NCBI GenBank assembly: GCA_951406725.2
Contig: OX597820.1
Span: forward strand, 4,216,001 to 4,280,000
Length of the DNA stretch: 64,000 bases
From: Octopus vulgaris
Taxonomy: Eukaryota
Direction of reading: 5' to 3'
How positions within the stretch are numbered: the stretch's first letter is position 1; each line of letters starts with the position of its first letter. Under the pieces are notes generated by a model. It did not search any database. It saw only the letters and a list, made by a program, of their open reading frames with translations, and was not told the DNA's origin. Positions 1 to 52,731 of the stretch are shown in pieces. A program made the position numbers and the translations under genes.

Positions 1-228
1 TCATTTATTTATTTATTCCTTTTCCAATTGCTATTTACATCCTTTAAAGTTTTTATACCAACAAAAAAATAATATACAATTACATATATACATGTCGAAA
101 TACTGATGTCCCAGAATCCCATGTGGCAGTGAGCCAAGCACATTATGAATATATTTAACCTAAAAAGGTATTCTCTTGTGACCTACAAAACAACAACTTG
201 TGTATTTGCATTTGAAACTTCCAGAATC

Positions 229-1440
229 ATCATCATCATCATCATTTAGCGTCCGTTTTCCATGCTAGCATGGGTTGGACGGTTCAACTGGGGTCTGGGG
301 AGCCCGAAGGCTGCACCAGGCCAGTCAGATCTGGCAGTGTTTCTACAGCTGGATGCCCTTCCTAACGCCAACCACTCCGAGAGTGTAGTGGGTGATTTTA
401 TGTGCCACCGACACAGGTGCCAGACGAGGCTGGCGAACGGCCACGCTCGGATGGTGTTTTTATGTGCCACCGACACAGGTGCCAGACGAGGCTGGCAGAC
501 GGCCACGCTCGGATGGTGTTTTTATGTGCCACCGACACAGGTGCCAGATGAGGCTGGCGGACGGCCACGATCGGATGGTGTTTGTTACGTCCCCAAAGCA
601 CGGAGGCCAGTCTATGCGGTACTGGCTACGGCCACGTTCGGATGATTTTCTTGTGTGCCACCGGCACTGGTACCACAAAGATACAAATTCCATTGATGTT
701 CATCTATTTTGATTTGTTTTGATTTGATTTGATTTGATTTGATTTTCACTTGCCTCAACAGGTCTTCACAAGTGTCACAAGAAGGAAGGTATGCACAGGT
801 GGACTGACTACGTCCCAGGTAGGGGCCACGGGTTATGGCCTGACTAGTCTTGCCGGGTCTTCGGATGGTGTTTTTATGTGCCACCGACACAGGTGCCAGA
901 TGAGGCTGGCGAACGGCCACGATCGGATGGTGTTTGTTGCGTGCCCACAGCACGGAGGCCAGTCGATGCGGTACTGGCTACGGCCACGTTCGGATGGTTT
1001 TCTTGTGTGCCACCGGCACTGGTACCACAAGATACAAATTCCATTGATGTTCATCTATTTTGATTTGATTTGATTTGATTTTCACTTGCCTCAACAGGTC
1101 TTCACAAGTGTCACAAGAAGGAAGGAAGGTATGCACAGGTGGACTGACTACGTCCCAAGTAGGGGCCATGGGTTATGGCCTGACTAGTCTTGCCGGGTCT
1201 TCGGTTGGTGTTTTTATGTGCCACCGACACAGGTGCCAGATGAGGCTGGCGGACGGCCACGATCGGATGGTGTTTGTTATGTGCCCACATCACAGAGGCC
1301 AGTCGATGCGGTACTGGCTACGGCCACGTTCGGATGGTTTTCTTGTGTGCCACCGGTACTGGTACCACAAAGATACAAATTCCATTGATGTTCATCTATT
1401 TTGATTTGGTTTGATTTGATTTGATTTGATTTTGATTTGA
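229..1440 (-). mobile_element. RTE LINE 3' end with (GAT)n tail and tandemly triplicated ~340-bp 3'UTR segment
   Basis: Same 3'UTR and tail as the copy at 45076-46003, which is attached to the RTE ORF C-terminus. Units restart at ~509, 861 and 1201. Confidence 0.85.
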
Positions 1441-5842: not shown

Positions 5843-6150
5843 TAGTTCTATATTTAAGAGATGAGGAATTATGTGTATTATTTACATTTGATGGATATTT
5901 GTCCTCATCTTGTTTGTTGTTAACGGGCATATGGTGTAATGGTTAAGAGTGCCGGCTACTAACCCCAAGATTCTGAGTTCGATTCCAGGCAGTGACCTGA
6001 ATAATAATAATATCGAAAAATACCTTAGGAATTAGAAACCAGGTTTGAAATTTCCCCAAGACACCTGATGCAGGCTGGAGGGTATATCAGCTGAAACATT
6101 GTGTTAACAACAAACAAGATGAGGACAAATATCCGTCGAATGTAAATAAT
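5843..6150 (+). mobile_element. tRNA-headed, hammerhead-bearing non-autonomous Penelope-like element, copy A
   Basis: Inverted 3'-end segment (5843-5924), tRNA-like head (5925-5998), (AAT)n, mutated hammerhead (6060-6105). Degenerate TSD gtatcgaagtgt / gtatagaagtgt. Confidence 0.75.
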
Positions 6151-6913
6151 GCGTATAGAAGTGTGTTGAAGTGAGAGTAGCAGGGATGTGAAACTGAATC
6201 TCTGGATGCCCAGTCAGACATCACAACTGAACCACAGCTGTTTCACCTGATCAGTCCATCAAGCAATCAATCAGTATCAAGCCTGAATCTTCCTCTTGGA
6301 CCCTACAAAAGGCTACATTTGGTGCTAATTTATGACAGAATTAGGGTTAATTAACAGCTGAGCGATATGTACCTCCATTCTTGCCACAACAGCTGGTACC
6401 AGATATCTGAGCAGACATCTCCAGGTTCTTGGACCGACTGAACTAAACATTCACAAAATGTCTCAGGCATGTTTTTTTTATCCTTCTCTTCCAGGATGAA
6501 ATTATTAATGCTGTAACCTTGTGTGTCACACATAAAGTCACACATTGTCACAATAAAATCTTGTCATATGTTCACAGCTGATGTTCAGTTACTTTTCACG
6601 CAGCCCCAAAAACATGTTTTCATTCATCAATCACAGACTAGCCAACACCCAGCTGAAAGGAGCATCGGCTAGCATTTTGGGGGTCCTTTTAGAGGGGATC
6701 ACCCTCTTGCAGGTATTGGAGCCAAGTCTCTGCTTTGTGGTTGGCTTCCACCAATTTAGTCTCCAAGTCCCTATAAAAGTTCCTGGGCACAGATTTTCCT
6801 TTTCCAACCAAGTCATTAAAACACACACACACACATTACATAAATACATATAATTAAGAATAATGAAGACTGCAATAATTTGCAGTTAGAATGAAGACTG
6901 GAAAATTACTCAC

Positions 6914-8739: not shown

Positions 8740-9977
8740 CTGAGCATCTGTGGTGTCTATTGCCCCTGTGCATCTGCAGCACACGAAAGCTAACTTCTCA
8801 GTTAATTTTCCTTTGATGTTGCTGCACCTCTTATGTGTCCATAGCTTACACTGGGTACATCTTATGAAGTTTCTACCTACACCTTTTCTATAGACTGAGC
8901 AGGGCCACCTACCTGAGGGGTGTGTGGTGAGTTCGCCTTCCTACTTACTAGAACTTTGGTCTTTGCTATGTTGACGCTAAGGCCTTTTGATTCTAAACCT
9001 TGCTTCCACACCAGAAATTTCTAATCCTAATACTCATTGCTAATCCTAACCTTACTAACAGCCTCTCTGTAAAGGGCCTGTACAGCCCTTATTAACCATT
9101 CGTCAATCTCCAGTTTCCGCATCGCCCACCAGATAAGGGATTGGGGGACCCTGTCAAAGGCTTTCTCCAAGTCCACAAAAGCTAAGTATAGGGGTTTATC
9201 GTTAGCTAGGTATTTCTCCAGCAGTTGTCGAACCAGGAATATGGAATCAGTGGTGCTTCTACCTGGCACAAAACTGAACTGCATCTCATCTAAGCAGACT
9301 CCCTCCCTGATGAGATGGGCTATGACCTTCTCTGTAACCGTCATCATCTGATCCAGCAGTTTGATACCCCTGTAGTTATTCCTATCTAAAGCATCACCTT
9401 TACTCTTGAAGCAGTTGACTATGGTGCTGCTACGCCAGTCATTGGGTATGACTCCATTATGAACTACCTGGTTTACAATGCGGGTGACTAGGCCATAGCC
9501 CACACCACCAGATGTTTTAAGCATCTCAGCAGTGATTCCTGATGGGCCGGGATCTTTTCCTGGTTTCATACCCTTAATTGCCTTAACTACTAGGGAGCTG
9601 TCTATTCGGATAGCTGGTTCCTCTACTGGGTCAACATTTGGCAGGCTCTCCTCCTCCCATTCATTCTCCACATTCAGCAGTCTCTCATAATGGCTTCTCC
9701 AAGCCTCTTTCTTTTCAGAAACATTAAAAGCAAGTGCACCATCATCCATGCGGACGCATTTCTCTCCTGTAACATCACTATTTTCTCTCACACACTGTCT
9801 TGCAATCCGAAATACCTCAGTTCTTTGGCCTGCATGTCACTGGACATTGGCAAACTTCTTTTCCGCTTCGCTCTTGGCTATGTATACCTGCCACCCAGCC
9901 TAATTTTTGGCTACCTGGTACAGTTCCCTGCTACCCCAACCCTTCCAAGCTTTCCAGGCCTGTTTCTTTGCTCTAAT
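8740..9977 (-). pseudogene. Truncated RTE-clade LINE ORF fragment (RT N-terminal half)
   Basis: ORF 9027-9791 contains NYRGIKLL, MQFSFVPGRSTTDSIF and [24 protein letters not shown] continues upstream until it is cut by the microsatellite. Contains stops and frameshifts. Confidence 0.88.
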
Positions 9978-10029
9978 ACATATAAATATATATACATACA
10001 TATATACATGTAAATATACATACCTATAT

Positions 10030-10060
<31 letters not shown>

Positions 10061-10256
10061 CATATATATATACATACATATATATATATATACATACATA
10101 TATATATATATACATACATATATATATATATACATACATATATATATATATACATACATATATATATATATATATACATACATATATATATACATACATA
10201 TATATATACATACATATATATATACATACATATATATATATATACATACATATATA

Positions 10257-10288
<32 letters not shown>

Positions 10289-10420
10289 CATACATATATA
10301 TACATACATACATACATATACATACATACATACATATACATACATACATACATATATATACATACATACATATATATACATACATACATATATATACATA
10401 CATACATACATACATATATA

Positions 10421-10454
<34 letters not shown>

Positions 10455-10515
10455 CATACATACATACATACATATATACATACATACATACCTATACATA
10501 CATACATATATATAC

Positions 10516-10548
<33 letters not shown>

Positions 10549-10572
10549 CATACATATATATATACATACATA
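9978..10572. repeat. Compound (TA)n/(TACA)n microsatellite, 5' flank of the LINE
   Basis: Directly visible. It produces the spurious YI/HT/MYV ORFs. Confidence 0.97.
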
Positions 10573-11697
10573 TGTTCTTTCAAACAGAAAATAATTAAAA
10601 AAACAAAAAAGATATAAAAATATAAAAATACGCGGTATTCTATCTTTATAATCTTTATAATTTCGTGCCTGCCACGCACTCTCTCTTTCTCTTTTTACAT
10701 TTCTATTTCTATCTCTCTCATACATTTTTATTATTTGTTATCATTAGTGTTCTTTCAAACAGAAAATAATAATTAAAAAGATATAAAAATACGCGCTATT
10801 CTATCTTTATAATCTCTCCCTCTCTTTCTTACATTTCTATTTCTATCTCTCTCATACTGTTTATACCTTATCTGTCTCCCCATCCACCAGACCCTCTATT
10901 TCCGCTCTCACTCTCCCCTCCTCCCTCTCTCTCCCTCTGCAATCGTTTCTCTTTCTGCATCTCTCTCAGATCAACTTTCTCTCACCTCACCCCCTCTCTC
11001 AGTTCCTCAACTTCACTCATTCTCTCTTGTATCTATATACCGCCCTCTTTCTCTCTCTCTCTCTCTGTTACTCCCCCTCCCTCTCTCTGCCTCTTTCCTC
11101 TCCGCTCCTTCACAGGTCAAACCCCTTTTCCTCTTCCCCTTCTGTCCCCTTATTTCTTTCTCTACACCACCCTCCCTGTCCCATTACTACACTCTGTTGC
11201 GCCCCCTCTCTTCCTCTTCCCCCCTTTTTCCTTCCTACCTTTCCTCTCCCTGTTCCCTCTAAGGCTCACCACCCCCCTGTCTCTTTTTCCTCTCTCTGTC
11301 TCCTTCCTCCACACCACCCTCTCTGTCCCTTTACTTCACTCCCTGGTACCTCTATCCTGCCCTCTCTCTCTCTCCCTCTCCATTTCATCTCTCTCTTCCT
11401 CTCCATTTTATCTCTCCGCCTTTCTTCTCCCTGCCCCCCCTAGGGTCCACCCTCTTGTCTCACTTTTCCACCCTGTCCCTTTCTACTACACCTCTATCCC
11501 GCTCACTCTCCCCCTGCTGACCTGCCATTCTCTCACCTTTCTCTTTTTTCCCTCTTATTTTCTCTCTTTCTCTCTTCTCTCAGGAAAATCCCCTCGTCTC
11601 TCTCTCTATCCCCCCTGGCTTTTCTCCTTTCTCTTCTCCCTCTCCATATCTCTCCTTCTCTATCTCTCTCTCTGTTCCTATATTTCACTAGAAGAAA

Positions 11698-12594
11698 ATG
11701 GCAAGAAACTGGTCTGCGAGAGAGGTGCAATTGTTCGTCCGCGCTTGGAAGATCGCTGAGGACGACTCGCCGAACGAAATTATTGCTGCGGCGCTGAAAA
11801 GCAACAATTTTTCGAGAACCACCGCCCAGATAGAGCGAAAGAAGAGAGAAGTTATCCGTTCGTACGCTCTAATCAGGCAACATGTGGACACCCTGGACAT
11901 CATCCTGGGAGGTGACGGCAGCAGGGAGGGCCAAAAGGATGAGGAAAGCATCCAGAGCCAAATGGAGAAGCCTGGAACACAGGGAAACGATGACACATGT
12001 CCAGCTTCCAACACCACAACTGAAGACCAAAGAGGTGCGATGGCCGCAAGAAAGGAAAGGCACCCTGGAATTGATGGGAAGCAGGAGGTAAAGGGTGACA
12101 GAATCAAGGCTAAAGGAAGCCCTGTCCAGAGAAAGCAGAGGGACCCCAGCAAAAACTGTAAGGGCAGGGAAAGAAACACCTGCAAATTCTACCTGAGGGG
12201 GGACTGCTGGTACGGCGTTGAAGGTGCAAACTGTCGCTTTGCACATCGGAGGCCCTACCAAAACCGCACGGACGCGAGACAGAGGTCCCTCCCTCAGGGA
12301 GAACAAAAACAAAAAGTTAAAAGAAGGGAAAAAAGCGCACTGACCACTACTGAAAGACGGTATGCAGATGTGGTGCGCGGAAACCCAACAGGTGGCCAGC
12401 TTCACCCAGATGTGAGAAGGGCGGCAGCTGAACAGCAGTCTTTTTTGTGCATGGCACAAAAAATTGTTCAGCAGCTGACCTGGCTACAAGCACAAAGCTG
12501 GAACTACCACCACATAAGGCCACCTCCAACAGATGCAGGATGGCCACCACAGACACCAACACCAACACACACACCACAAAAATATTTCTACTGA
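11698..12594 (+). CDS. LINE ORF1 protein (298 aa): Myb/SANT-trihelix-like N-terminus plus CCCH zinc finger
   Basis: N-terminus WSAREVQLFVRAW...IIAAALKSNNFSRTTAQIERKKREVIRSY fits the Myb/SANT-like pattern W.xxE...L+..W..IA..L.....RT..Q...K...+...Y. The finger is CKFYLRGDCWYGVEGANCRFAH (C-x7-C-x8-C-x3-H). Confidence 0.8.
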   Translation: MARNWSAREVQLFVRAWKIAEDDSPNEIIAAALKSNNFSRTTAQIERKKREVIRSYALIRQHVDTLDIILGGDGSREGQKDEESIQSQMEKPGTQGNDDTCPASNTTTEDQRGAMAARKERHPGIDGKQEVKGDRIKAKGSPVQRKQRDPSKNCKGRERNTCKFYLRGDCWYGVEGANCRFAHRRPYQNRTDARQRSLPQGEQKQKVKRREKSALTTTERRYADVVRGNPTGGQLHPDVRRAAAEQQSFLCMAQKIVQQLTWLQAQSWNYHHIRPPPTDAGWPPQTPTPTHTPQKYFY

Positions 12595-15551
12595 ATGTAG
12601 GAGGGCTGCTGCGCGGAAACTGTAAAAAGAAAATTTCATTCCTGAGAGACCTTGTGACATGCAATCAAGCTATATGCATGGCACTCACAGAAACGCATCT
12701 TGAACCCGATATAGGTGATGCAGAAATACACATGCCGCAATATGCAGTCATACGCACAGATAGAAAAGGGAGGAGCCATGGTGGAGTTGCAATGTACATC
12801 CGAGATGACCTCACGCCCCAGGTCCTGCTGTCATATTCAAACTCAGTATGTGAAACTCAAATTGTACACATAAGACAACTGAATATCGTCATATGCACTA
12901 CATATCGCCCACCAGACGCCCCAAAACACTCAGGCATGTTTGAAGACTGCCTAACAAAAATAGGAGAAGTCCTCACCAACCTTGAACAGCACAACAGTGT
13001 ATTCTTCATGGGTGACTTTAACCTCCCCAATGTGGAATGGCCTGGGGGGCAGATGCTCCCAGGGATGACACACCATCAGCAGGCACAGGTGGAGTCCCTG
13101 CTCCATCTCACAAATACCTCTTTCATGGAGCAAATAGTTCTGCAACCAACAAGGGCAGATAATATACTGGATCTCTGCTTTACAAACAATATGGATATTA
13201 TCCATAATGTTAATGTGATGCCGACAATGATCTCGGATCACAACATAATAGAGCTGTCTACGTATGGAACAAAAGCCCCCGCAGACACACAGCCTATACG
13301 AAGCACCCACCATCTCTCCAACTTAAACTTTCATAAAGCCAACTGGAAGTCGATTGAGAAAGAGATCCTCAAACAGGATTGGCCTGAATGTCTCTCCACA
13401 CCGGACATAAACATGAAACACAAACACTTCATGTCCATAATACAAGCCATATGTGACAAATATGTCCCAATGTGCAGGGCCAGCACACACAAGAATAAAA
13501 ACAGGATCCCTAGAGAAAGGAGGATTCTTATGAGACGACGGACAAGGATTGCAAACCGCCTGAGCAAGCACACCAAAAGTGGTGAGAAGTCTCGGCTCGA
13601 AAGAATGCTAATGGAAACTGAGAAAAGTCTACATCAGTCCCATGAAAAGGAGAGAGCAGATAAAGAAGCTTGGGTAATAGAAAATATAAAATCAAACCCT
13701 AAAGCTTTCTTTAAGTTTGCCAAAGAGACAGCCACAGTGCACCAGAGAATAGGACCTCTCTTCCAAAAAGATGGCTCTCTCACAGGAAATCCCACGAGGA
13801 TAAGTGAAATACTGAACGAACAGTTCCAAAGTGTATTCACTACACCTCTAGGACACAGGCAAGTAAACAACCCAGAAGAATTCTTTGCCACTTTACCAGC
13901 GGCCAAAGAGACAAAAATTGAGTACATCAACATCGAAGAAGATGATATCACACTAGCCATTGATGAGATTGACACAAACTCAGCTGCTGGACCTGATGGA
14001 TTCCCAGCGATCCTTCTCAAATCGTGCAAACGAGCCCTTGCAAAACCGCTACAGCTTCTTTTTCAGAGCTTTCTTGCAAGTGGTAAGCTCCCAGTCAAAC
14101 TGAAAGAGGGGGTAATATGCCCTATCCATAAGGGAGGTAGCAGAGCAGATGCTAAAAATTATAGGCCTATCTCTCTGACCTCACACATCAGCAAAGTCAT
14201 GGAACGAATAGTCCGTAAGAAACTAATCATGTTCCTTGAAGAAAATGACTTACTGTCTGACACCCAGCATGGATTTCGACCAGGTAGAGGCTGCCTAACA
14301 CAGCTCCTGCAACACTATGACTGGGTGTTGAAACAGCTACTAAATGGCTCAAATGTGGATGTAATATATCTTGACTTTGCAAAAGCCTTTGATAAAGTCG
14401 ACCATGGTATGATCTGTCACAAACTGCGTGGTCTCGGCATAGGCGGGAAACTTGGAGAGTGGCTGCACAACTTCCTAAAAGACAGAAAACAGGCAGTTGT
14501 GAGCAATGGAGCCACCTCCAGGGAAACGCAAATAACAAGCGGTGTCCCACAGGGCACTGTCTTGGGGCCACTGATGTTCATAGTGGCCCTTTCAGACATG
14601 CCTTCAGTTGCTACGATGACCACCCTTGCTAGCTATGCAGATGACACAAAGGTCTCCCACGCAATACAGAACCCTGAAAATATTGCGCATCTGCAACATG
14701 AGCTGGACACAATATACAGGTGGGCTGAGGACAACAACATGCAGTTTAATGCAGGTAAGTTCCAGGCCCTGCGCTACTGGCACACAAAGGTAAATGACGT
14801 GAAGACTGGATACACTGGCCCAGGAAGAATTGCAATCCCTGAGTCAAAATCAGTGCGTGACCTGGGCATTGACATGAGCAATGATGCATCTTTCCAAATG
14901 CATATTGCTAATCTGGTGATAAAATGCAGACGGCTAGCTGGATGGATTCTCCGAACTTTCAGAACAAGAGAGAAGGAGACACTGATGGTCCTATGGAAAA
15001 CATTTGTCCTCAGCCGCTTGGACTACTGCTCCCAACTTTGGTCACCACACAATATAAAACAAACAGCAGAACTCGAAGCAACTCAGAGAAGCTACACAAA
15101 GAAAATCGTCTCAATGCAAAATGTCAGCTACTGGGAAAGACTGAAGGTATTAAACCTCTTCTCCCTGGAGCGGAGGCGGGAGAGATATGCAGTAATATAC
15201 ATCTGGAAAATCCTGGAGGGTCTTGTCCCAAACTTTGGCATTCAAAGTTACTCCAACCGCAGAACGGGGCGCCGCTGCGTGGTGCCAAGGATTCCAACAT
15301 CACCATCAAAATACAGGTCCAGATACTGCAACAGCTTGGGTTTCAGAGGACCACAGCTTTTCAACATCCTCCCTAAATGCCTGAGAGACTTACATGGTGT
15401 GGATGTGGGTTTCTTTAAAACTAAACTGGATCTCTTCTTGTTGGGAGTCCCAGATGAACCTACCTCACGACAGGAGACACGGATGCGGGCAGCAGCATCG
15501 AACTCCCTTGTTGATCAAGTGCCACGTATCAGAGGTGGATTCACAAACTAG
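12540..15551 (+). CDS. LINE ORF2: APE endonuclease plus reverse transcriptase (first ATG at 12540; frame open from 12432)
   Basis: APE motifs LLNVGGL, LTETHL, YRPP, GDFN, ILDL, SDH. RT motifs NYRPISLTS, QHGFR, YLDFAKAFD, GVPQGTVLGP, YADD. CR1-type C-terminus YWERLK.L.LFSLERRRER. No stops or frameshifts. Confidence 0.95.
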   Translation: MATTDTNTNTHTTKIFLLNVGGLLRGNCKKKISFLRDLVTCNQAICMALTETHLEPDIGDAEIHMPQYAVIRTDRKGRSHGGVAMYIRDDLTPQVLLSYSNSVCETQIVHIRQLNIVICTTYRPPDAPKHSGMFEDCLTKIGEVLTNLEQHNSVFFMGDFNLPNVEWPGGQMLPGMTHHQQAQVESLLHLTNTSFMEQIVLQPTRADNILDLCFTNNMDIIHNVNVMPTMISDHNIIELSTYGTKAPADTQPIRSTHHLSNLNFHKANWKSIEKEILKQDWPECLSTPDINMKHKHFMSIIQAICDKYVPMCRASTHKNKNRIPRERRILMRRRTRIANRLSKHTKSGEKSRLERMLMETEKSLHQSHEKERADKEAWVIENIKSNPKAFFKFAKETATVHQRIGPLFQKDGSLTGNPTRISEILNEQFQSVFTTPLGHRQVNNPEEFFATLPAAKETKIEYINIEEDDITLAIDEIDTNSAAGPDGFPAILLKSCKRALAKPLQLLFQSFLASGKLPVKLKEGVICPIHKGGSRADAKNYRPISLTSHISKVMERIVRKKLIMFLEENDLLSDTQHGFRPGRGCLTQLLQHYDWVLKQLLNGSNVDVIYLDFAKAFDKVDHGMICHKLRGLGIGGKLGEWLHNFLKDRKQAVVSNGATSRETQITSGVPQGTVLGPLMFIVALSDMPSVATMTTLASYADDTKVSHAIQNPENIAHLQHELDTIYRWAEDNNMQFNAGKFQALRYWHTKVNDVKTGYTGPGRIAIPESKSVRDLGIDMSNDASFQMHIANLVIKCRRLAGWILRTFRTREKETLMVLWKTFVLSRLDYCSQLWSPHNIKQTAELEATQRSYTKKIVSMQNVSYWERLKVLNLFSLERRRERYAVIYIWKILEGLVPNFGIQSYSNRRTGRRCVVPRIPTSPSKYRSRYCNSLGFRGPQLFNILPKCLRDLHGVDVGFFKTKLDLFLLGVPDEPTSRQETRMRAAASNSLVDQVPRIRGGFTN

Positions 15552-18391: not shown

Positions 18392-18937
18392 TGCTGTAGA
18401 CGAACTTGACCAAATGGCAAGGCTTTATCCAGTCAAAGGCAAGCAGTAGACAATGGCCAACATGCATTCTTTAAATAATATTTTGGACGTTATAAACAGC
18501 TGCACAGTATACACAAGAGTTTTCATTTCAGTCCTTCGTTGACAGGAATATATTCAAAAATTTGCTGAAGAACTTTGTGCTGCTTCACCTCATAGTCACT
18601 CATGGATAATTAAATGCCCATCTACCTCTAGAAATAACGTGAAAACAAAATGCCAAAACAGAACCACAGAAATGTGTGGAGTCTGTAAAAAACTGTCGGA
18701 GGCAAATGTGCACCAAAACATCGCAAGGAATGTCTGGAATTACAATAAATTCTTTTTTGTTTTGTAAGGATTTCTTTCAAAATATCAAACCTTTGTGACT
18801 AATAGCATCATGAAGTCATAGAATTCAATAGATTTATACATTTAATAAAGGTCTTCTACCTCTCTCCTTTTCTTTCATTTTCCTTTCAAATTGAAAAACA
18901 TCTTTGCATCAATTGACGCATTCTGGTCCTTAAAGGT
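18392..18937 (+). pseudogene. piggyBac transposase C-terminal relic with right end
   Basis: AVDELDQMARLYPVKG / SSRQWP (piggyBac GVD..DQM...Y....SRRWP pattern), a Cys-rich C-terminus (KCQNRTTEMCGVCKK), and a degenerate ...ccttaaagg terminus. Confidence 0.7.
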
Positions 18938-19628
18938 GGGTGAAAAGCCTTCTAGTGTTAAGTTTCTATCAAATCCATTCATAAGGCTTTGCTCAACCTG
19001 GGGCTATAGTAGAAGACACTTGCCCAAGGTGCCACACAGTGGGACTGAACCCAGAACCATGTGGTTGGGAAGCAAGCTACTTATCACACAGCCACTCCTG
19101 CGTCTATGGTCATTTTAAAAAAAGAAATCACAACACTTGGATTTCATTCATCAAAAAACATCTCCACTCATTTTCTAAGATATGGTTATATGCTTAGACT
19201 GTGCTTCACTGATGAGGTTTAATAAGACTGAAATATGCATAAAGTTATCCTTAAACCCACCCACTCCCCTCACTACATTCATTCTGAACTAATTTTTTTA
19301 TCATTTTAAATTACGGGATTGTCCACTCTACCTCTCTTGATTCAGTGTATTGATCTTTAGTGATTGATTAGCCGAGTTATATGTATTACGGGCAGTAAAA
19401 CACCTTTGGAATCTTATTTTCCATTTTGGCATAAAACATGTCAATTAATGGCAAATATAAGAAGGAGAAGGCGGATGAAAGTTGGTGTTCTTTATGGTGA
19501 GGCTCTCATTTAAATATATTTGTGTCATGTCTGGTGATAGGGTCAGGGATAGGGAACAGAATAAAGGGGCCACATCCAAAAACAAAATAAAATATTGACC
19601 AAAGAAAAGAAAAAAAAAGAGTTCTTAC

Positions 19629-22089: not shown

Positions 22090-22331
22090 TGCTGGTGGCA
22101 TGTAAAAAGCATCAATCGATCGTGGCTGTTGCCAGCCTCCCCTGGCACCTGTGCCGGTGGCATGTAAAAAGCACCCACTACACTCACGGAGTGGTTGGCG
22201 TTAGGAAAGGCATCCAGCTGTAGAAACACTGCCAGATCAGACTGGAGCCTGGTGCAGCCTCCTGGCTTCCCAGACCCCGGTCGAACCGTCCAACCCATGC
22301 CGGCATGGAAAACGGGTGTTAAACGATGATG
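22090..22331 (+). mobile_element. RTE LINE 3' end fragment (further copies at 25007-25300 -, 34203-34433 +, 46180-46358 +, 57684-57880 -, 59388-59525 +, 61086-61365 -, 63805-63960 -)
   Basis: Shared core ctacagctggatgcccttcctaacgccaaccac and (GAT)n tail. Confidence 0.82.
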
Positions 22332-22423
22332 AACACTTGTGTGCAGAGGGAGAGAGAGAGTTTCGTTACAACCCAGTGAATCTCTTCCTTTAACTATTCC
22401 CAACACAGTTATTACAAACATCT

Positions 22424-22640: not shown

Positions 22641-22949
22641 CATGTTGCACTCTCACACAACACCGCACTCCTTACGATCACATGCAGCCATCATCTTCCT
22701 ACATATATATATACACACACGATGGGCTTCTTTCAGTTTCCGTCTACCAAATCCACTCACAAGGCTTTGGTCGGCCCGAGGCTATAGTAGAAGACACTTG
22801 TCCAAGGTGCCACGCAGTGGGACTGAACCCGGAACCATGTGGTTGGTAAGCAAGCTACTTACCACACAGCCATGCCTGCGCCTATACTGAATAAACACTC
22901 GCAGACAAATTGCATCTTTAATTTCAAGATAATTGTTGCATTTGGCAGA

Positions 22950-25465: not shown

Positions 25466-26180
25466 TTTAAGAGGTTTTATGAGATAACAAATCAGTAGAG
25501 CATCAAATGATATACCTTGTGGCATTTAGCTGAATCCTTTTTATATTCTCAGTTCAATTCATACCTAGGGCCACCTTGCCTTCCATGGTCAATAAAATAA
25601 ATTGTAACCGACAATACTTCAGAAAGTGGTGTTCCAGCATACACTGCCATCTTTAAAACAAGATGGTTATGGTTAGAGTGCTTTTGATCAAATATCTGCT
25701 TAGTAGGGCAAATGTCAGAGTCTAAACAATACCAAAATACAGTTTTATAGATCTATTTGACTGCTTGATTATTTTGGTTTGAGTTCTTGTAAAATCTCAG
25801 AATTTATGGTCTCTCGATAACAGCAGCTTCCAATCTACCTAAACATCACACAAGTTACTGCAGTATTTGTCCAAAGATAACATCTCTTATAGACTTGCTG
25901 TATTTAAAAGCAATACGAGGGGGGGGGGGATGCGAAGATGAAAACTCATCTCTGCAGAAGATAGCAAGAATACCAAATACATTTGGCTTTGCAGGTTTTT
26001 TTTTATTTATTATCAATAATGTTTACTCATAGCTACATGCCTGGATGAAATCCAGCCATGCCAACATATCAGAAACTGTGAATAAAACAATCACTGCTGT
26101 TGTAAATAACTGCTCAGCTGAATAAAAATCTGGTACATGCAATTGAAGCAGTATTAAATTAATATTAAACTATTATTATA

Positions 26181-26217
<37 letters not shown>

Positions 26218-28057
26218 TCAATGTCTTGTATCAAACTCAGAATCTTGGGGTTAGTAGCCTGCGCTCTTAACCACTACGCCATATGCCCGTGAGCAATTAA
26301 GTGGTGAATTTTTAAGGCTTATAAATCTAATATTCTCCTATCCTTCCTTAATACCGATTCCCATATGCTGCTCATATCTGCACTCGGTCTGCTTAGGAGG
26401 TTGTTGTGTTCCAGCATATGTGCTGCTTCTTTTAGTTTTCGTATTTTCCAGTGGTGTCCTTTGTCTATTATTTTAACTTCATCCCACAGGGGGGGGGGGT
26501 GTCTCCATTTTTAAACTATAATAATTTTAAACTAATAATGATATTTTATGATAAGATTTCAATGAATTACAGATTCTAACTTGATATAATTTTTAAAAAA
26601 TGCTGTCATTGCATGTTAAAACACAACCAAATAATGTAGAGGAGGCTTGAGATAAGAGAGGTGTCATCATCAATTGAGTCTAGAAAGGTGGAGGTAGGAT
26701 AGCTCTCCTTCTAAGAGGTTTCAGGAGATAAAGAGAGATAAAAATGATGGGACTAAAGTTCAATGGCTCATTACAATGATAAAAGATTGAAGATTAAAAG
26801 GAAAAATTTTATAATTTGTGAACATGAAGCAAAGCATGGATGTGGGTGACTACCTCTTTGGAGTTAAGTTATCAAATGAGGTGTGGTGAGAGCTATCAAA
26901 GGGAGGAGAAATAGAGATTATCAATTTTAGAAGAGCTGTCGTCTTTATGGTAATTTACATGACTGAACCTGTTGAAAAATTTGGAGGGCAGTACTTAATG
27001 AAATCAGATCAAATCTAGCTTGTTGTTGAGATTTCCATTTTTGTTTTGTCGAATAAAGGATCCATAAAGTATAAGGGACTAAAAAAACTACAGCAATTAC
27101 ATTTATTACAATCCATACTTTACACCCGTTTCGGTCATGGTAATAGACACATCACAATGACAGATGTGACTCTACTCCTATCATCAATCATGACACCACC
27201 ACCACCACCCTAGATCATAATTTTGACAAGAAGGAGCCTCAATTCTTATCCACTCAGGGTCCTCTTACCAGACGATCACTTTCAGCTCTCAATGTCACAG
27301 ACAGCATCCAGCAAGCAGCTGTAAAAATATGTTGGTCATCTGTGCTAGGTCAGCACGGAGTGACTTCATGAATGCAGTTGATGTTGACGACCAACTGCGG
27401 TACTGGAAGTGTAGCAGTCATTAAGAGACTTGCCCAAGCTAAGGAGGACCCAAGTTTTACAGACATGAAAAACAATTGTTATGATTAGTTGTTATTAAGA
27501 TTCTCTTCTAAAGTTGTCCGAAAAAGGATGGAAGTTCAGATATTTCTTATGTCATTGAGTACAGACCAGACCTACATCTTGATGTCCACCTTTGAGGCTA
27601 TCAACAATAATAAAGAATTTGAATTCAGAAATTATCTTAAGCAAGGTGTCCTAGTTAACAGTTTTGAGCAGTTTCTGGTCTGTTAGATTGAAGGGAATGT
27701 ATTTAGTTTTATTTTGGCAGAGACTGGAACCCTAATCTGTTGCAGCAATGGATAAGTCTGAATATTAAAGTCTGTGAACTCCAGTTGATTTGAAGTCCTT
27801 TGTTCAGTGGAATATCCAAGTGTAAATTTTAACAATTGGATCTTGTTCCACACATGCAAGACATTTTGTAACTGTTCAGCTTTGCTACACACATATGTGG
27901 GCCACCTAACAGGTGTTTTGACACCATTAAAGTTTCTTTGTTCATAATGTAGAATATAGTCACAGGTAAGAAGTGTCAAAAGACACATAGACAATAGGTA
28001 CATATAAAAAGTGCTCAGACCAAACCAAGAGCTTAAACACTGAGGTTTATATATATA

Positions 28058-32483: not shown

Positions 32484-35394
32484 CAGACTACTGTTGCTAC
32501 ATAATATTTCTCACTCACAGATTTAAAACTCGTTTTTTTTCCTCTTTAGAAGGTCAGTGACTGTGTGTCACTTTAAAAGTATATACTGTAAGCAAGAGTG
32601 AGTGGCTGCTATCTGTAGCTGGCGGTTGTCCTGTACCGATGAAGAGAAATTACTCAGAAACCATTGCTCTACAGGTATTGCTACGGCTAGAAAGGGACAG
32701 TAAACTCCCTTGCTCACAGTATATGGACACAGATCACGTGTCAGTAGCCAGCTGGAAAAGATGTTTTTCTGGGGCTAAAAAGTAGTAACATCGTCCTGCG
32801 TAGGACTGCCACGTTGTGTTGGCAAAAAGACTTTACATATATTCTTTTATTTGTTTCAGTCATTTGACTGTGGTCATGCTGGAACACCACCTTTAGTTGA
32901 ACAAATCGATCCCAGGACTTATCTTTTGTAAGCCTAGTACTTATCCTATCAGTCTCTTTTGCTGAACCTCTAAGTTACAGGGACATAAACACACCAATCT
33001 CAGTTGTCAAGTGACAGTGAGGGGGGACAAACACAGACACACAAACATGCATATATAAATATATCTGACAGGCTTCTTTCAGTTTCCATCTACCAAATCT
33101 ACTCACAAGGCTTTGGTCAGCCTGAGGCTATAGTAGAAGACACTTGCCCGAGGTTCCACACAGTGGGACTGAACAGAGAACTAAGTGGTTGGGAAGCAAA
33201 TTTCTTACCACACAGCCATGCCTGCACCTATATATATATATTGGACAAACTGGAAATGCGCTGACTGAATGTGTGTGGATACACAAACAGCAGCAAATTA
33301 GAAAGATTCCATGAAGGTAACATCTGGATAACTACTTTTAAAGTATTTACTTTTTTTAAATGAAGAGAGAGTGTAACATTAGAAGGTCTGTTACAGAGAA
33401 ATATTTTACTGAAAAATTCCAACCAAAATAAATGGACGACATCATCACCACCACCACCACCACAATGTTTTCCAATTTGCCTCTATTTCATGATCAATCA
33501 AGCAATAACCTCCCCTTGCTGATACTTTGATATCGAGATTATTCTATTCTCTCATTACAACAAGAACCACCTCTTACCAATACTAGGTTGTTATTTCTGG
33601 GACACTGCGTAAATTCAATACAACAAAGCTATTCATCTTATGAATGTTGTTACTGCAAAACATTGAAGTACTACTTAATTGTGAATACATGTTTCAGAAT
33701 TTGGTTATGTTGAAATCTTTAATGATTAAATACGCTTTCATTGAACATAGATTTTCTAACACACGCACATATCAATCATCTTCATTTAATGCCTGGCTTT
33801 TGTGCTAGGATGGGTTGGTTGGACAGTTCAACAGGGTTCGGCAAACTGGAGGACTGTGACATGCTCCAGTATTCACTCTGCCCTTCAGTAATGCCAACCA
33901 TTTTACAAAGTGGACTGGGCATTTTTTGTAGCACCAGCACTAGTGATGACCAACTTAAAACTCATTGAGTTAAGGGCTTAATGTGAGCTCTATAACTAAG
34001 AGAAGGGCCTTCTCTAGGTCAACAAACATCAGGTATAGGGGCTTGAATCAGGAGAAGGTAGGATGACAAGGAAGTGTAAGATGAGAAGAATAGATTTTAT
34101 AGACGAAAGGGTGTAGAGGGGAGAGTAAGAGGAAGGGGGAATATGGCAGGGGGACAGGAATGGAGTACTACCAGGGATTATTGAGAAAAGAAGAGAGTGG
34201 AATGATCATGGCCGTTGCCAGCCTCCCCTGGCACCTGTGCCAGTGGCACGTAAAAAGCACCCACTACACTCACAGAGTGGTTGGTGTTAGGAAGGGCATC
34301 CAGCTGTAGAAACTCTGCCAGATCAGACTGGAGCCTGGTGCAGCCTCCTGGCTTCCCAGACCCCGGTCAAACCGTCCAACCCATGCTAGCATGGAAAGTG
34401 GACGTTAAACGATGATGATGATGATAATGATGATAGAAAGGTGACTGGGTAGGTTGTGTGTGTATCAGGTCTAGGGATATCCTACATTATAAGAGTGACT
34501 ATACAAGTGTGAGAAGTGGGTAGGAAGGGATGAACAGACTAGGGTGGAGAGGAATCCCGAGGGGGTTCTCTGAAGGGAAGAGAGGTGTGGGAGTAGGCAA
34601 GAAGAGGAGGGAAAGCTGAGAAGGGGTTTGGGGAGGTGAAGCTGTGGGGAAAAGAGAGTAGTAAGAGAAACTCCTGTAGAGAGTGAGGGAGTAGTGGGTG
34701 AGAGCAATAAGAGAAATAAAGGAAAGGGAGCCTAAATGTAGGGAGAAGAAGGGCCATGGAAACATCCCAGATGAGGAGGAAAAGGGAAGAGGGGAGGGGG
34801 GGAAAACTAGGTTCAGTGAGTGCAGTGAGAAAGACAAAGGCCACCTCTGCCGCCAACAAAGGGTTTCTCACTAAACATCAACAGCAAATTGTATGATACT
34901 TGTGGCCAAAATAGGGGGTTACATGTTAGTGACTTAAGGGTCTTGAACGCAATCAGTTTTTAAACTCCTCTGTTATGGCTCAGAGGATTTTTTAATGAAC
35001 AGAAGGGGGTTGAGCCCTAAGCCCTGATGCACCTTTACCTTTGTGCTAAATCCATCACTATGCTTTTTAATAAGCCTCAACCTTACAAGCAGTGCTTCTG
35101 TACATGGTTTGTACAGGTGTCACAAGCCATTCATATTCTCCAAGATTCCTCAGTGACCACCAAATCACAGAGTGTGGAACCCGGTGAAAGGCCTTCTCTA
35201 GGTCAACAAATATCAGGTATAGGGGGCTAAAATCAGGCTAGAGACCTTTTCCACAGCTGTTTCACAAGAAAGATGGCATCAGAAGTACTTTTCTCTGGTA
35301 CAAAATCAAACTGCATTGCCTCTCTGTAAATTCTCGCCCTAATCATTGTACTAAACCTTTTCAATAATTTTCGTAACCTGTTCCAACCTGTGTG

Positions 35395-42745: not shown

Positions 42746-45075
42746 TCTATATAAAGTAAACTATGCATAGGTATAGCTACATAGCTATGACTGTATGGTT
42801 AAGAAGTTCACTTTGCAACTGCATGGTTTCAGGTTCAGTCCCACTGTGCAGCACCTTGGACAAATGTCTTTTATTATAGCCCTGGGCCGACCAAAGCTTT
42901 GTGAGGGAATTTTGTAGACGGAAACTGTGTGGGAGCCATTTATATATATGTATGCTTGTTGACCCCTCCCCCCCAGGTGTTTGTTTACATTCCTGTAACT
43001 TAACAGTTCAGCAAAAGAGACTGGTAGAATAATTACCAGACTTTAAAAAAAATAAACACTGAGGTCAACTTATTCCACTAAAAACCTTTTCAAGACGGTG
43101 CCCCAGCATGGCCGCAGTCCTACAGTTAAAACAACTATGTATGATGACCATTCTTTCAGACAGCTTCATTGCAATATTTGGCAGAGAAGCTTCTGATGGT
43201 AAAAATCAGAAAGGATTCAAGAACAGCCAAAATCAAAAGAGGATTATTTAAATAATTCTTCAATCTAGACTTTTATTCCTTTGCAGTTTGATTCCTGACA
43301 CATTGTCTCTCAAGAGGAACATAAAAGTATTTTGTCAATTCCGTTCTGCCACAATAAAAGACATCACAGTTGCATCCCTCCAGCCTCGTTTTTCAATTCC
43401 AACTTAATTGGTTCTAATGCTGATACAACAGTAGGAATAACGTTAACCCATAAAGCGCTGGGATTTGCACTTACATTGCATGAGCTGCTGAGCACATTTT
43501 ATGAAAATGAAACTACCATGCACACAAAAAACCCCAAAAAATAGTTAAAATATCCTCTTAGTATATAATGGTGGGAAGTTTTACATCATCTGAAAAGCCG
43601 TCTTGCATTCTTGAGGGTATCGGAGCGTTTGAATGACATCAGACCCCAACAAACGCCCATAAATTAAATGCATCTATCTGGGCCATGACGTGGCCTGTCA
43701 ACCTGAGCCTGACGGCCACGGTTGTGTCCAGTCCTGCTTTGTGCTGTGTTGTCTGGACAGTCAAGAATACGTTTATACCGGAAATAACTTTTATCAATGC
43801 AGCTTTTAAAACACAAGGAATATTCAAACATTGCCAATAACCAATTCCTTTTGGTCTTCACATCTTTAATTACAAGTCGTGACCATTCTTCTCTTTGTAA
43901 CAGATTTCTGGAGTCTTTTATCCTTTACTGGTTTCAGTCATTAGACTGTGGCCATACTGGGGCATTGCTCTGAAGAATTTTCAATCAAATGAATTGGCCC
44001 CAGTAATTCGTTTCTCTTTTTAATGCTGGTACTTATTCTATCCATTTCTTTTGCCAAACTGCTAAGTCACAGGGACATAAATATACCAACACAGGTTGAC
44101 ACACACACATATATACACACGGAGGGCTTCTTTCAGTTTCTGTCTACCAAATCCACTCACAAGGCTTTGGTCAGTCCAAGGCTAGAATAGAGGACACTTG
44201 CCAATGGTGCTACACTGAAGGACTGAACCCAGAACCATGTGGTTGAGAAGCAAGCTTCTTACCACACAGCCACACCTGTGCCAAGTTTTTTTGGGGTTTT
44301 TTTTCTGTGTAGTATTACAAATGAACAAAATGGTTGGCATTCAGAAGAGGAATCCAACTTGACAGACCCTGCGCCAATGCAGACACTGGAGCTGTGCACA
44401 GGCCTCTGACTTGTCAATTCATGTCAAATTGTTCAACCCATTGCCAGAAGGGGAAAAGGGGATGTTAAATGATGGTGATGATGATGATGATGATGATGGC
44501 AGTGACAAGGTTTAACCCCTTAGCATTCAAACTGGCCATACCTGGCCAAAATATTCTACTTGTTTTATGCTCAATCTAACTAGATCAGGCTTCTCACACC
44601 TACCCTGCAATGTCATGATTAATTCAAAACAAAGTGAATCAATGAAGCTGGCATTTAACAGAGACATCTGAATGCTAAAAGGTTTTTTTTTTTTTTTCTT
44701 TAACAGAACGGTCTTCTACATTAAAAGCTGTTTTGCTGTGCTTAGTTTGTGGCAGACTGGCACAGAGTGTATGTCTGTGCAAATTGACAGAGCCAAGTCC
44801 AAGAACTCTTCTAAACACTTTACCTTTGCAATATATATTCTTTAATGTCATATTAAACTTATTTAATCAAACAAAAATGGAAATTTTATTATATAAATGG
44901 TACGTAAATGAAATAGTTTGAACATATGAAACAAAATGGTCACTGATGAATGTCATGTTATTTATTATAGTGAGTTTTTGAAACAAAAAAATTTGAGAAG
45001 TGTATATTCTTGTAGCAGCATGTATACACAAACTGAGGTATGTACAGTGTGTATGTATATCATCATCTTCAATAC

Positions 45076-49199: not shown

Positions 49200-49556
49200 G
49201 TTCTATATTTAAGAGATGAGGAATTATTTACATTTGACGGATATTTTTCCTCATCTTGTTTGTTGTTAACACGTTTCGGCTGATATACCCTCCAGCCTTC
49301 ATCAGGTGTCTTGGGGGAATTTCGAGCCTGAGTTCTCATTCCTAAGGTATTTTTCGGAATCGAACTCAGAATCTTAGGTTAGTAGCCTGTGCTCTTAACC
49401 ACTACGCCATATGCCCAATAATAATAACATCACAAAATACCTTGGGTTTGAAATTTCCCCCAAGACACCTGATGAAGGCTTGGAGGGTATATCAGCCAAA
49501 ACGTTGTGTTAACAACAAACAAGATGAGGACAAATATCTGTCAATTGTAAATAATG
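49200..49556 (-). mobile_element. tRNA-headed, hammerhead-bearing non-autonomous Penelope-like element, copy B
   Basis: Minus-strand unit ending at the tRNA 5' end (49416), joined to a plus-strand partial unit. Hammerheads at 49268-49310 (-) and 49464-49510 (+). 15-bp TSD tggttattttctgtt at 49188-49202 and 49557-49571. Confidence 0.8.
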
Positions 49557-52175
49557 TGGTTATTTTCTGTTAAACAATTCTTTTTCAAAAGAGGTTCATC
49601 CATTCTAATCATACTATTTAAAAAAAAAAGGAAAAAAAAGCGTTTTGTGAACAGTTTAAAGAATGATCTGTTGAATAATTTGGGTACTTTTAAGATATTT
49701 CGAAACAACACTGGCAGGAAACAGAATATAATAACCCCAGAGAACTTCAGATTGTAGCTTTAGCCAAATTTTGCAGGAATATGGGGTCAGAGAAGCCCTT
49801 GAATATGGTTTATATAAAATAGTTCATACATATAGTCTGTATAAAATGGTCTATATAATATAGTGTATATAATACAAGCTTTATGGAATGGAGTCAATAT
49901 ATAAAATGATTGATGAATATATTGACTTATTTCAGTAAATCACTTCAAAACATTTTCCAAAGTTTTCTCACTTCAAATATTTTAGCAATGATCCTTTAGG
50001 AGGTTGCCTGACCTGCTAGAAATCAGCCCCATCTCCTTCAAATCACCCCCTTACCTTCATATAAAGAGAAAGAACACAGTGGCTGATTTCGTCTTAGATA
50101 CAATGAGTCTCCAATAGAGATGCAATGGTCATGGCTGAACCATTTTTAATTACAAGCCTATTGGATCAGGGCTAATCTAGGCCTAAACAATAACAAAATA
50201 AAGGATTAAATAGAATTAGTGTTTAAAGAAATTAAAAAAAAAAGAAGTCCCAATGAAGTTTTGTTGGGGGGAAAGGCTGATGAATGAGTGTAAACCAAAT
50301 TAAATAACTACAGATTAATATGGATTAAGGGGAAGTCAATACTTTAATGTTCAAATAAGGGGGTACAACTCCATATAGGTTTTGGTCTCATTTCTATCTC
50401 CTTAGCAAAGCACAGCTTTCATTGTACATGCTGTAGTAGTGATGAATGAATCCCTATGTACATAGACAAACCAGATAATAACTTTGTTTGTAAAAGGTGT
50501 GAAAGCTATTCAATCTTTCTATTGAATACTATCTTTTCCTTTTAGCAAAAGTCACAAAACTTGAGGCAATAATTTAAAGAGCAATAATTTAAATATATTG
50601 ACTGTGAAATTGTTTTATTAAAGAGTTAAGATTCAACAACTCAGTAGAGTTTATTAACGAATTTCAGTTGTCACAGCTGACAAAAGAGTAATTGATTTAA
50701 ACTCAAAGCTAAGTAGGTCACCAGCTGGAACTAAGTTAAACTGCACTAAACCCATTTCTAATCTATTCTTCTTTGGTCGTTAGAAGCCAGGTTATATACT
50801 TTACAGCAGCTTCTCACTTTAAATAGTTTTTTTTTTTGTGTTAAGGTTTAAAAACAGCAGACAAGACAAATGCAGGTCACCTTAAAAATATTTCATTGTT
50901 TCACTGGGCATGGAAGATGCCAGTTGGAGACGACTGTGATTCGGTTGAAATTAAAATTGCTCGGCACAAGCCACGAGAAGGGAAGAGTAGCTTTGTGTGA
51001 GGAGAGAAGATTTTTACATTAAGTATTACAACAACAACCACACGAGCAAAAAAGATTAGGTCATCTTTTATTCTAAAATCAATATTTATCAGCAGGTCAA
51101 CAAATTGTACTTTATTCCCAATGAAATAATCACATTTCGTATTTGAAGTTAACAGCTGATCCTCTTTGCTGGTTTTATTTTTGCAGTTAGCTGCGGGCCT
51201 GCCGTAAGCTTTATGCACCTTATGCACAGGCTCTGCCGGTAACTGAACATTTTACAACTACTGAAACCCCCTCAATATAATAATCCTCATAATCAGTTGC
51301 AGGATGACCCTTTGAATTACAGCTGCAGTCCATTCATTAGGCTTCCTTACAGTTTCCATCTTCACATTTTCGATTAAATGCCTCGAGTTGATCCAGGGCT
51401 GTGGCAGAAAATACTTGCCCAATGTGCTACAGAGTAGGATTGAAACAGGGACCACTTAACTGTGAACCTCTTGTCCATATGTCCATATTAGAATTGACAT
51501 TTATGCAGTTTACTATAAGGATTTCTTGACCACCAGGTGGACAGCGGAGGTAGGTGCCAAGACACGGGGATTGAGAGGGGTCTTATCTTGTAGACCTCAC
51601 TGGTGCTGATGTCATGAAAAGCACCCAGTACACTTTGGATCCAGCTGTAGAAACCATGCCAAAGCAGACATAGAACTTGGCACTGCCTTTTGGCTTGTCT
51701 GTTTTTGTCAAACCATCCAACTCATGCCAGCATGGAAAATGGGAACATTAAATGATGACGAAGATCAGAAGATTCAATGTATTGCCATTGCTATTTTTTG
51801 CTGTTATTTTAATGGCAAAGTGAGGGGAGGAATGGCAGCACTCAAGACCCTTTTTAGGAATCTTCATGGCTGATGAGAACAAGTGAATTTCAAACAAGAA
51901 ACCAAATTTATTAACAACGGAGCTGATTTGACTAAGCACATGCAAAGGCCAGTTGATGGTGTTAAGTCAAGAATTGGAATCAGCCTTTCCAAAATTTCAC
52001 TCACAAGGATTTTATTAACCTCAAACTGTGGTAGAAGACACTTGCTGAATGTACTGTGTAGTGGGATTGAAACTAGAACTTCTCAAACACACAACCAGTA
52101 GAAGACAAGGCTCCAGCTGGCCTCAATACTGCTGGTAAAGCAGTTATCAAAGTTGCAAAAACATACACCTGCTGT

Positions 52176-52536
52176 ACTAAATTTAAGAGATGAGGAATTA
52201 TGTACATTATTTACACGGGCATATGGCGTAGTGGTTAAGAGCGCAGTCTACCAACCCCAAGATTTCAAGTTCAATTTCAGGTAGTGACCTGAACAACAAC
52301 AACAACAAGAAGAAGAAGAAGAAGAAGAAGAAGAAGAAGAAGAAGAAGAAGAAGAAGAAGAAGAACAACAACAACAACAAGAAGAAGAAGAAGAAGAAGA
52401 AGAAATACCTTAGGAATGAGAACCCAAGTTCGAAATTTCCCCAAGACACCTGATGAAGGCTGGAGGGTATATCAGCCGAAATGTTGTGTTAACAACAAAC
52501 AAGATGAGGACAAAGATCCGTCAAATGTAAATAATG
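52176..52536 (+). mobile_element. tRNA-headed, hammerhead-bearing non-autonomous Penelope-like element, copy C
   Basis: Short inverted end, tRNA head (52217-52290), (AAC/AAG)n, hammerhead (52445-52490). Degenerate TSD aacatacacctgctgt / aacatgctcctgctgt. Confidence 0.78.
52445..52490 (+). ncRNA. Minimal type I hammerhead ribozyme (best-preserved copy of its family)
   Basis: gacac-CTGATGA-a-ggctg(gagggtatat)cagcc-GAAA-t-gTT-gtgtt. Stem I is gacac/gtgtt and stem II is ggctg/cagcc. Stem III has no loop (AC|GT in sister copies). Confidence 0.75.
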
Positions 52537-52731
52537 AACATGCTCCTGCTGTTTGATGGTCCCTTTGTTTGTGAAACTTGGGTAATTGCATTAACAAGAG
52601 GGAAGTACAGCATGAGGGATGCTGACATGGTGAAGTTTTAAAGTAGAAACCAAAGATTTGAGAGGGACTATGTAGAACATACGAGGTGGATTAGATAGTT
52701 AACTAATTGCTATCCTGCTACAATAATTTAA

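Follow-up and report, generated by a model that had tools for sequence, protein, structure and literature searches.

What is a tRNA-like sequence doing directly behind the reading frame of a Penelope-like element (PLE)? The question is raised by a stretch of 64,000 nucleotides from Octopus vulgaris (contig OX597820.1, positions 4,216,001 to 4,280,000; hereafter the window), in which the end of a GIY-YIG-type open reading frame (ORF) is followed by a head with A and B boxes and by an (AAT)n tract. From this arrangement it was originally predicted that an autonomous PLE had captured a tRNA or SINE head in its pseudo-LTR (pLTR), and that RNA polymerase III (Pol III) makes from it a short RNA which the PLE enzyme mobilises in trans.

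The locus and its relatives in the window

The GIY-YIG-type C-terminus, with its stop at 26321-26319, proved genuine: the peptide shares 57% identity over 49 aa with PLE protein P0009 (E 2e-18), and it gave no significant match to the Anolis PLE protein P0087. On the minus strand, 30 nt lie between this TAA and the head, which starts at 26288 (family position +1) and stands, with its boxes and its (AAT)n tract, where it had been placed. The window copy spans family positions -221..+92 at 92%, has one CpG change and one further change in its B box, and continues with nothing of the family beyond (AAT)n. The same head recurs at 5925 (copy A), 49416 on the minus strand (copy B) and 52217 (copy C), each time leading to a hammerhead motif and a PLE end. 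As read from the sequence, these three are two-arm insertions inverted head to head, one arm with tail and one without, between target duplications of 12-16 bp. That the head of these copies leads into a hammerhead motif had been predicted and held, while the single fixed 3' end predicted along with it gave way to two. Every hammerhead in the window carries decay changes.

26319..26512, minus strand: last stretch of the PLE ORF, which encodes the C-terminal portion of the GIY-YIG domain and is cut off on its 5' side at 26512; the stop TAA is at 26321-26319
26289..26294, minus strand: positions -6..-1, G-6 (26294) being the presumed RNA start; a short palindrome with the first head bases in the family
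26214..26288, minus strand: tRNA-like head (+1..+75), A box 26281-26271 and B box 26238-26227, by motif match and with no ARAGORN or Rfam call
26170..26213, minus strand: (AAT)n tract, which lies between head and AUG in intact units; the window copy stops here
5923..6151, plus strand: copy A forward arm, -2..+233; the head is followed by a short (AAT)n, an AUG and a decayed hammerhead (about 6060-6105), and the end is tailless
5844..5924, minus strand: copy A inverted arm, +185..+265 with tail; target duplication 5832-5843 / 6153-6164 (12 bp, 1 mismatch)
49200..49416, minus strand: copy B arm, +1 to tail end, with an internal deletion removing (AAT)n
49417..49557, plus strand: copy B second arm, +82..+234, tailless; target duplication 49188-49200 / 49557-49569 (13 bp)
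52214..52541, plus strand: copy C forward arm, -3..+238; its (AAC/AAG)n tract is expanded and its hammerhead decayed
52174..52215, minus strand: copy C inverted arm, +223..+264 (tail); target duplication about 52160-52175 / 52537-52552 (16 bp, 2 mismatches)

The names of the tRNA-like head and of the hammerhead both come from motifs. Run on the window and on a second locus (L034), ARAGORN and Rfam returned neither a tRNA nor a hammerhead match, and low-threshold ARAGORN on control loci gave noise. Such silence is as expected of a promoter-only remnant. In the majority sequence of the family both boxes are exact, the cloverleaf is lost and the head does not fold as one. Among 30 host tRNA loci, which sample only six amino-acid types, the closest were those for Arg (49-51 of 75 identities), followed by Ala and Thr.

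A fixed part of a coding element

The genome searched (2.8 Gb in 227 contigs) gave 4,014 candidate matches. Forty were scored, the window copy and 39 others, and each of them spans the junction between ORF end and head at 89-93%. Apart from the window copy 29 loci were fetched; read by eye, 27 of them run past (AAT)n into the hammerhead part. A chance SINE insertion at 26288 is ruled out by this recurrence. The head is tied to GIY-YIG ORFs elsewhere in the genome, and PLE ORFs are followed by head and hammerhead, both of which had been foreseen; these junctions support the head as a fixed part of the pLTR of an autonomous PLE. When 30 heads were taken in order of position, 25 led to the PLE 3' part and the remaining five were without common downstream sequence. 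A free SINE family with the same head and another tail was not seen among these 30.

The majority sequence was built by script from the fetched loci, including loci found with an N-terminal probe, in which the tail passes straight into the ORF. It gives a unit of 2,649 nt with one ORF of 835 aa, and this unit runs in order through the head (+1..75), (AAT)n, an AUG (+113), a hammerhead within the first codons (+142..187), the PLE tail (ending at +266), RT, GIY-YIG, the stop and 29 nt to the next head. The head had been predicted to lie merely after the ORF in the pLTR. Its place in the pLTR is indeed fixed, but in a tandem unit the same head stands both 29 nt after the stop of one ORF and 112 nt ahead of the next AUG, a promoter position before a coding strand without TTTT. 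The order head-(AAT)n-hammerhead-tail-ORF is continuous in real loci (L171/L383, +4..1176; L259/L384, +1..609; L184), and partial tandem and inverted pLTR arrangements are also present. The longest head-started copy reaches +1176 and the full-ORF copies L385 and L387 begin at +209 and +221. Among the loci examined no head-started copy extended to the ORF end, which counts against reading the coding unit as a Pol III product, as does a two-codon upstream AUG within the A box. A TATA motif is absent from the pLTR and from the 150 nt upstream of it.

RT motifs are found in the longer loci (RVT_1, E 1.4e-10), and homologs carry PF00078/PF26215, one of them PF01541; the endonuclease piece goes unnamed by Pfam and takes its GIY-YIG label from alignment to PLE proteins. 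The 835-aa protein is 37% identical to Anolis protein P0087 over residues 35-830 and 57-72% identical to relatives (the P0127, P0009 and P0149 clusters). The same hammerhead-encoded N-terminal peptide is kept in P0009 and P0149, at 57% identity. Long copies have a median identity of 93% to the majority sequence (83 alignments). A genome search with two foreign PLE proteins for a sister Poseidon family returned 30 loci, all of the same family, and a repeat search gave largely the same places. The window element is a truncated copy of a high-copy EN+ PLE, apparently of the Penelope/Poseidon type as judged by pairwise identity. The family matches EN+ PLEs in every feature tested, is SINE-like at its 5' end, and, in the pLTRs compared, does not form a separate non-coding lineage.

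The hammerhead of the majority sequence has a conserved core, 5-bp stems I and II, a palindromic stem III and a GUU site, and a subfamily variant falls on the one free core position. By these motifs the pLTR carries a putative minimal type I hammerhead. Its form we take, from the PLE literature, to be minimal and probably dimeric. A pile-up of 5' ends at the cleavage site (+183) was not clear, with 3 of 89 anchor arms ending in +180..191.

The missing terminator

For Pol III, a run of at least four T is a stop signal. The majority coding strand has no TTTT in its 2,649 nt, as against 31 runs of A. The number expected is 2.9 from synonymous-codon shuffling (P 0.029), 4.5 with Phe codons taken as neutral (P 0.005), 4.6 from base shuffling (P 0.009) and 2.7 from dinucleotide shuffling (P 0.06). 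GGGG is likewise missing from the majority sequence (P 0.29 by codon shuffle, 0.036 by dinucleotide shuffle), and the bias of Phe towards TTC has a P of 0.06. Individual copies do contain TTTT, at 0.45 per kb, and across 132 copy alignments no single position shows it in over 12%.

Foreign controls were 79 PLE loci from metagenome contigs, 46 of which have a stop-free frame of at least 300 aa. TTTT is present in 43 of these 46 ORF stretches, the three without it being shorter ones; all six ORFs over 800 aa hold 9-43 runs each, and the total lies above expectation (392 vs 345). At 30 foreign PLE loci, chosen for having an ORF end, no A or B box was found within 520 nt past that end, and many of their 3' UTRs are T-rich. 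TTTT occurs in 23 of the 24 other long frames compared from the octopus genome. One of these, a second, unrelated PLE (L061:2795-3922, minus strand), with an RT end, Cys/His motifs and GIY-YIG, has six in 375 aa; from its motifs we take it to be Neptune-like. The intact CR1-type LINE of the window is also below expectation, with 3 against 6.6. As a sign of Pol III, the absence of TTTT is suggestive and not decisive, coming as it does from one family, one test, and a majority sequence set against single copies.

Since every unit begins with a tRNA-like head at which the 5' ends of copies gather, and the coding strand lacks TTTT, the whole element is likely to be read by Pol III. We hold it to be rather probable that the head, going by its sequence, acts as a Pol III promoter for the autonomous coding unit itself. 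The processivity of Pol III, which has been argued to exclude long autonomous elements (Kojima 2024, PMC10886601, in its available text), counts against this reading.

Short copies and pLTRs linked to the ORF

The genome holds 1,062 exact head motifs (7,736 at two mismatches) and 4,982 exact 3' motifs, and 145 tail-to-ORF junctions at one mismatch; an ORF end lies upstream of only 5 of the 30 position-ordered heads. With short copies so far in excess of ORF starts, Pol III could be thought to make only the short head and hammerhead RNA, as a self-propagating SINE-like family moved in trans, while the ORF mRNA came from Pol II through host read-through or an unseen promoter and the lack of TTTT was due to chance. 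Copies that keep head and tail are transcribable in principle, and non-autonomous derivatives of PLEs are known, as far as the available texts go (PMC8557442; bioRxiv 10.64898/2026.07.22.740005). However, when 58 head-started pLTRs were set against 54 ORF-linked ones, the two groups had their major and their minor haplotype in common and did not differ in age (non-CpG divergence 4.8% vs 5.1%, P=0.38). They lack diagnostic variants save for one strong difference at a CpG of the B box and one other site (P 0.013). The former is attributed to query bias, as many of the ORF-linked loci were picked with the window copy, which bears that change. Head-started arms moreover extend into the ORF (L384 to +609, L383 to +1176). 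According to the accessible part of the report on the anole element (PMC11167929), its template RNA must include the opening 172 nt of the ORF, which lie past the tail; by analogy, the solo copies here would be without the required part. The separate SINE-like lineage of the original prediction is thus not seen in haplotypes or age, and we consider a short RNA moved in trans unlikely, though it is the alternative that keeps the most in its favour. The simplest reading of these 58 and 54 pLTRs is that the short copies are solo pLTRs made from RNA of the same masters, which is what they look like. A minority lineage moved in trans could escape a sample of this size. Most copies read as single or two-arm, and one, L252, is a multimer.

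Where copies begin and end

The 5' ends were mapped for 90 of the 4,982 3' motifs, taken in order from the start of contig C1; one arm abutting an N gap was dropped to leave 89, four of the sampled arms were corrected by hand, and two pairs are the two arms of a single insertion. The ends fall in +94..191 for 19 arms, in (AAT)n for 16, in +12..75 for 15 and in -8..+11 for 25; those of the other 14 lie further upstream, a single one of them in the adjoining 100 nt. Among the 39 arms that reach the head, 25 end in -8..+11, and the end rate per nt is 5.3% at the head start vs 0.5% inside the head (binomial P 5e-17). The 5' ends of short copies lie at the head start and are not randomly distributed, in keeping with what had been predicted.

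A set of 143 distinct heads, enriched for ORF-linked ones, contains 74 that are read through from the ORF end, 37 that start at -5..+1, nine that match -6..-1, and 23 fold-backs. In the nine non-fold-back heads that match -6..-1, T-7 of the upstream sequence appears once, and the base at -7 is G in two and A in six. At the partial tandems L253/L254 (which share one junction), L262 and L269, an ORF-internal end jumps to G-6 across 1-10 A-rich bases. From these clean junctions we infer an RNA start at G-6; this base is a purine that follows a pyrimidine and precedes the A box by 13 nt. The A-rich bases at the four template-jump loci could be oligo(A)-tailed broken RNAs that served as acceptors.

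Pol III might also have no role at all, the head being a dead SINE or tRNA insertion in the pLTR, the RNAs read-through, and the ends at the head a product of cDNA folding back on the palindrome at -7..+5. That the palindrome contributes to the pile-up is evident from the 23 fold-back junctions among the 143 heads, which are to be counted against the Pol III reading as well. A small hairpin is possible at the cDNA end (-2.5 kcal/mol for a 36-mer), RNA run X21 contains 367 reads with an inverted-head loose end at -7, which is the fold-back junction, and palindromic inverted junctions of rotifer PLEs have been interpreted as self-priming (PMC3846280, in the text available). Yet 37 + 9 of the 143 heads begin at -6..+1 without any fold-back, the template jumps begin at -6, and the majority sequence has lost the cloverleaf but kept perfect A and B boxes. 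A dead head would also leave the missing TTTT unexplained, and we regard it as quite improbable.

Three raw unstranded RNA runs of an organism with a related label gave 8,600-12,200 reads each on locus L028, equal on both strands and with a profile that follows genomic copy number. No start site is visible in these three runs, and the reads say nothing on the polymerase. A cap tends to leave an extra G at a 5' junction. The head could set the RNA start through Pol II, as an internal promoter or assisted by TFIIIC, with a capped mRNA from about -6 that would solve translation, the pile-up showing an RNA end and not an enzyme and putative TATA/Inr promoters being described for pLTRs of other PLEs in the accessible text of PMC3846280, but the TATA motif is absent, there is no extra G at -7, and intact A and B boxes without TTTT fit Pol III better, so that this is the least credible alternative and a very improbable one.

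At the other end, copies stop either in +232..243 (43/90) or in +260..276 (40/90), the difference being an optional tail of 30-40 bp. Two internal RT starts shown for the anole element match the two 3' ends seen here (PMC11167929, available part). At the tailless end a 9-nt unit (family +219..+241) is often repeated two or three times in frame, which recalls RT slippage or repeat addition at the priming site. Nine copies (L068, L092, L106, L148, L075, L097, L109, L113 and L124) are linked via (AAT)n with other repeats that themselves end in (AAT)n, an arrangement that suggests insertion into ATT microsatellites.

A proposed mechanism

With the head as Pol III promoter of the coding unit, the following course may be proposed. 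A tRNA or SINE head would have been captured at the place where other PLE pLTRs have a TATA-type promoter. From the upstream head, Pol III would start at G-6, probably read through the 2.6-kb strand, and make an RNA of head, (AAT)n, AUG, hammerhead, tail, ORF and second pLTR that stops at the first flanking T-run; the downstream head may start a short RNA as well. Translation would be from uncapped RNA. The RT-GIY-YIG protein would then nick AT-rich DNA and start cDNA at either tail end, for which the anole Poseidon element offers an in vitro precedent. Priming at the last pLTR would yield 5'-truncated ORF-end copies such as 26170-26512, while priming at the head-proximal tail would run off at the RNA 5' end and yield the solo pLTRs, which are abundant and resemble SINEs, copies A, B and C among them. 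On reaching the RNA end the cDNA could join a second cDNA, fold back on the terminal palindrome or jump to another RNA, giving inverted pairs and partial tandems.

Taken as a whole, the account is that an autonomous coding retrotransposon exchanged Pol II for a tRNA-derived Pol III promoter, purged every TTTT from its 2.6-kb frame, and is translated uncapped through its (AAT)n leader, with the same RNA also giving rise to thousands of solo pLTRs, so that SINE head and enzyme sit in one unit. We offer this full account tentatively, at a little under even confidence.

It is usually held that autonomous retrotransposons depend on Pol II, or on Pol I read-through, and that Pol III serves short non-coding parasites only, a division stated for LINEs and SINEs and argued for LTR elements (PMC10886601, in its available text). 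If the proposal is true, a coding PLE under a Pol III promoter breaks this division, offers an example from nature of an ORF under selection against Pol III terminators, and raises the question of cap-free translation. Whatever the enzyme, a sharp RNA 5' end makes the family a good readout of the steps of PLE integration (two primings, fold-back, template jumps). There is also a warning here, in that some abundant "SINEs" of such genomes are solo pLTRs of PLEs.

Relation to known elements

Among the closest known systems are PLEs of the Penelope/Poseidon clade such as PAc of Anolis carolinensis (Frangieh et al. 2024, PMC11167929). In the part of the report available, PAc shares a single ORF with RT and C-terminal GIY-YIG, a hammerhead that overlaps the beginning of this ORF, and a pair of 3' ends some 30 nt from each other; its insertions, too, may be inverted or in tandem and lie in AT-rich targets. 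The octopus element differs in that its AUG lies upstream of the hammerhead and in its tRNA-like head; neither such a head nor a Pol III promoter is mentioned in that part. The other PLEs fetched have long T-rich 3' UTRs, whereas that of the octopus element is 29 nt long and free of TTTT.

Among short repeats, Sm-alpha and Sj-alpha of Schistosoma likewise have an apparent Pol III promoter followed by a hammerhead, but they are non-coding and often in tandem, and the accessible text names no autonomous partner (PMC6765202), whereas the octopus module is the pLTR of a coding PLE. The TRIMp3 elements Cassandra, Helenus and Ajax share a tRNA- or 5S-derived Pol III promoter in the terminal repeat, probably from a SINE insertion; as the available text of Kojima 2024 has it, they are non-autonomous LTR elements of less than 1.3 kb whose autonomous partners are held to need Pol II (PMC10886601), in contrast to a 2.6-kb coding PLE. 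The octopus element, with its coding frame, pLTR and tail, is not a member of TRIMp3, which have true LTRs with PBS and PPT and are non-coding. Animal non-LTR retrozymes share the type I hammerhead and a proposed origin from PLE pLTRs (PMC7229834; bioRxiv 10.64898/2026.07.22.740005). As these sources describe them in the parts available, they are tandem non-coding monomers freed by double cleavage, while the octopus copies are mostly dispersed, two-arm, and have 5' ends that do not gather at the cleavage site. The terms "tRNA" and "Pol III" do not occur in bioRxiv 10.64898/2026.07.22.740005.

With tRNA-derived SINEs (SINE2) the family has in common the tRNA-like head with A and B boxes and short copies of about 270 nt. 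SINE2 elements end in a LINE-type repeat tail, whereas the octopus tail is that of a PLE and the short sequence also serves a coding element as its terminal repeat. Ohshima and Okada reportedly described the octopus tRNA-derived SINE families OK, OR1 and OR2 in 1994. Our literature search found nothing on the short form as a catalogued octopus SINE. Nor did the literature searched contain any PLE in which a tRNA head or a Pol III promoter is described; it did not extend to Repbase, Dfam, SINEBase or subscription papers, so that earlier cataloguing is possible. A tRNA-headed PLE is not described in the accessible portions of PMC11167929, bioRxiv 10.64898/2026.07.22.740005, PMC8557442, PMC7229834, PMC10886601, PMC13282606 with its supplement, PMC3846280 or PMC6765202.

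Other repeats in the window

Several other repeats share the window with the PLE copies. An apparently intact two-ORF LINE lies at 11692-15551 (plus strand), with a 300-aa ORF1 bearing a CCCH-like motif, a 1,039-aa frame for AP endonuclease and RT, and flanking (TA/TACA)n arrays; its motifs lead us to assume the CR1/L2 type. An RT fragment of 269 aa at 9027-9836 (minus strand) is, by its motifs, presumably of the RTE type. One dispersed repeat family occupies 7929-8130, 18900-19101, 22678-22879, 33024-33225, 44078-44279 and 62048-62249, and another 3147-3361, 4358-4572, 22118-22332, 34204-34418, 46141-46355 and 54175-54389, with a further dispersed repeat at 395-1309. These dispersed families, one of which has internal tandem units of 62 bp, look like ordinary host SINEs. 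Finally, an inverted repeat at 61800-62137 / 62462-62799 has arms of 338 nt that are 98% complementary and lie 324 nt apart.
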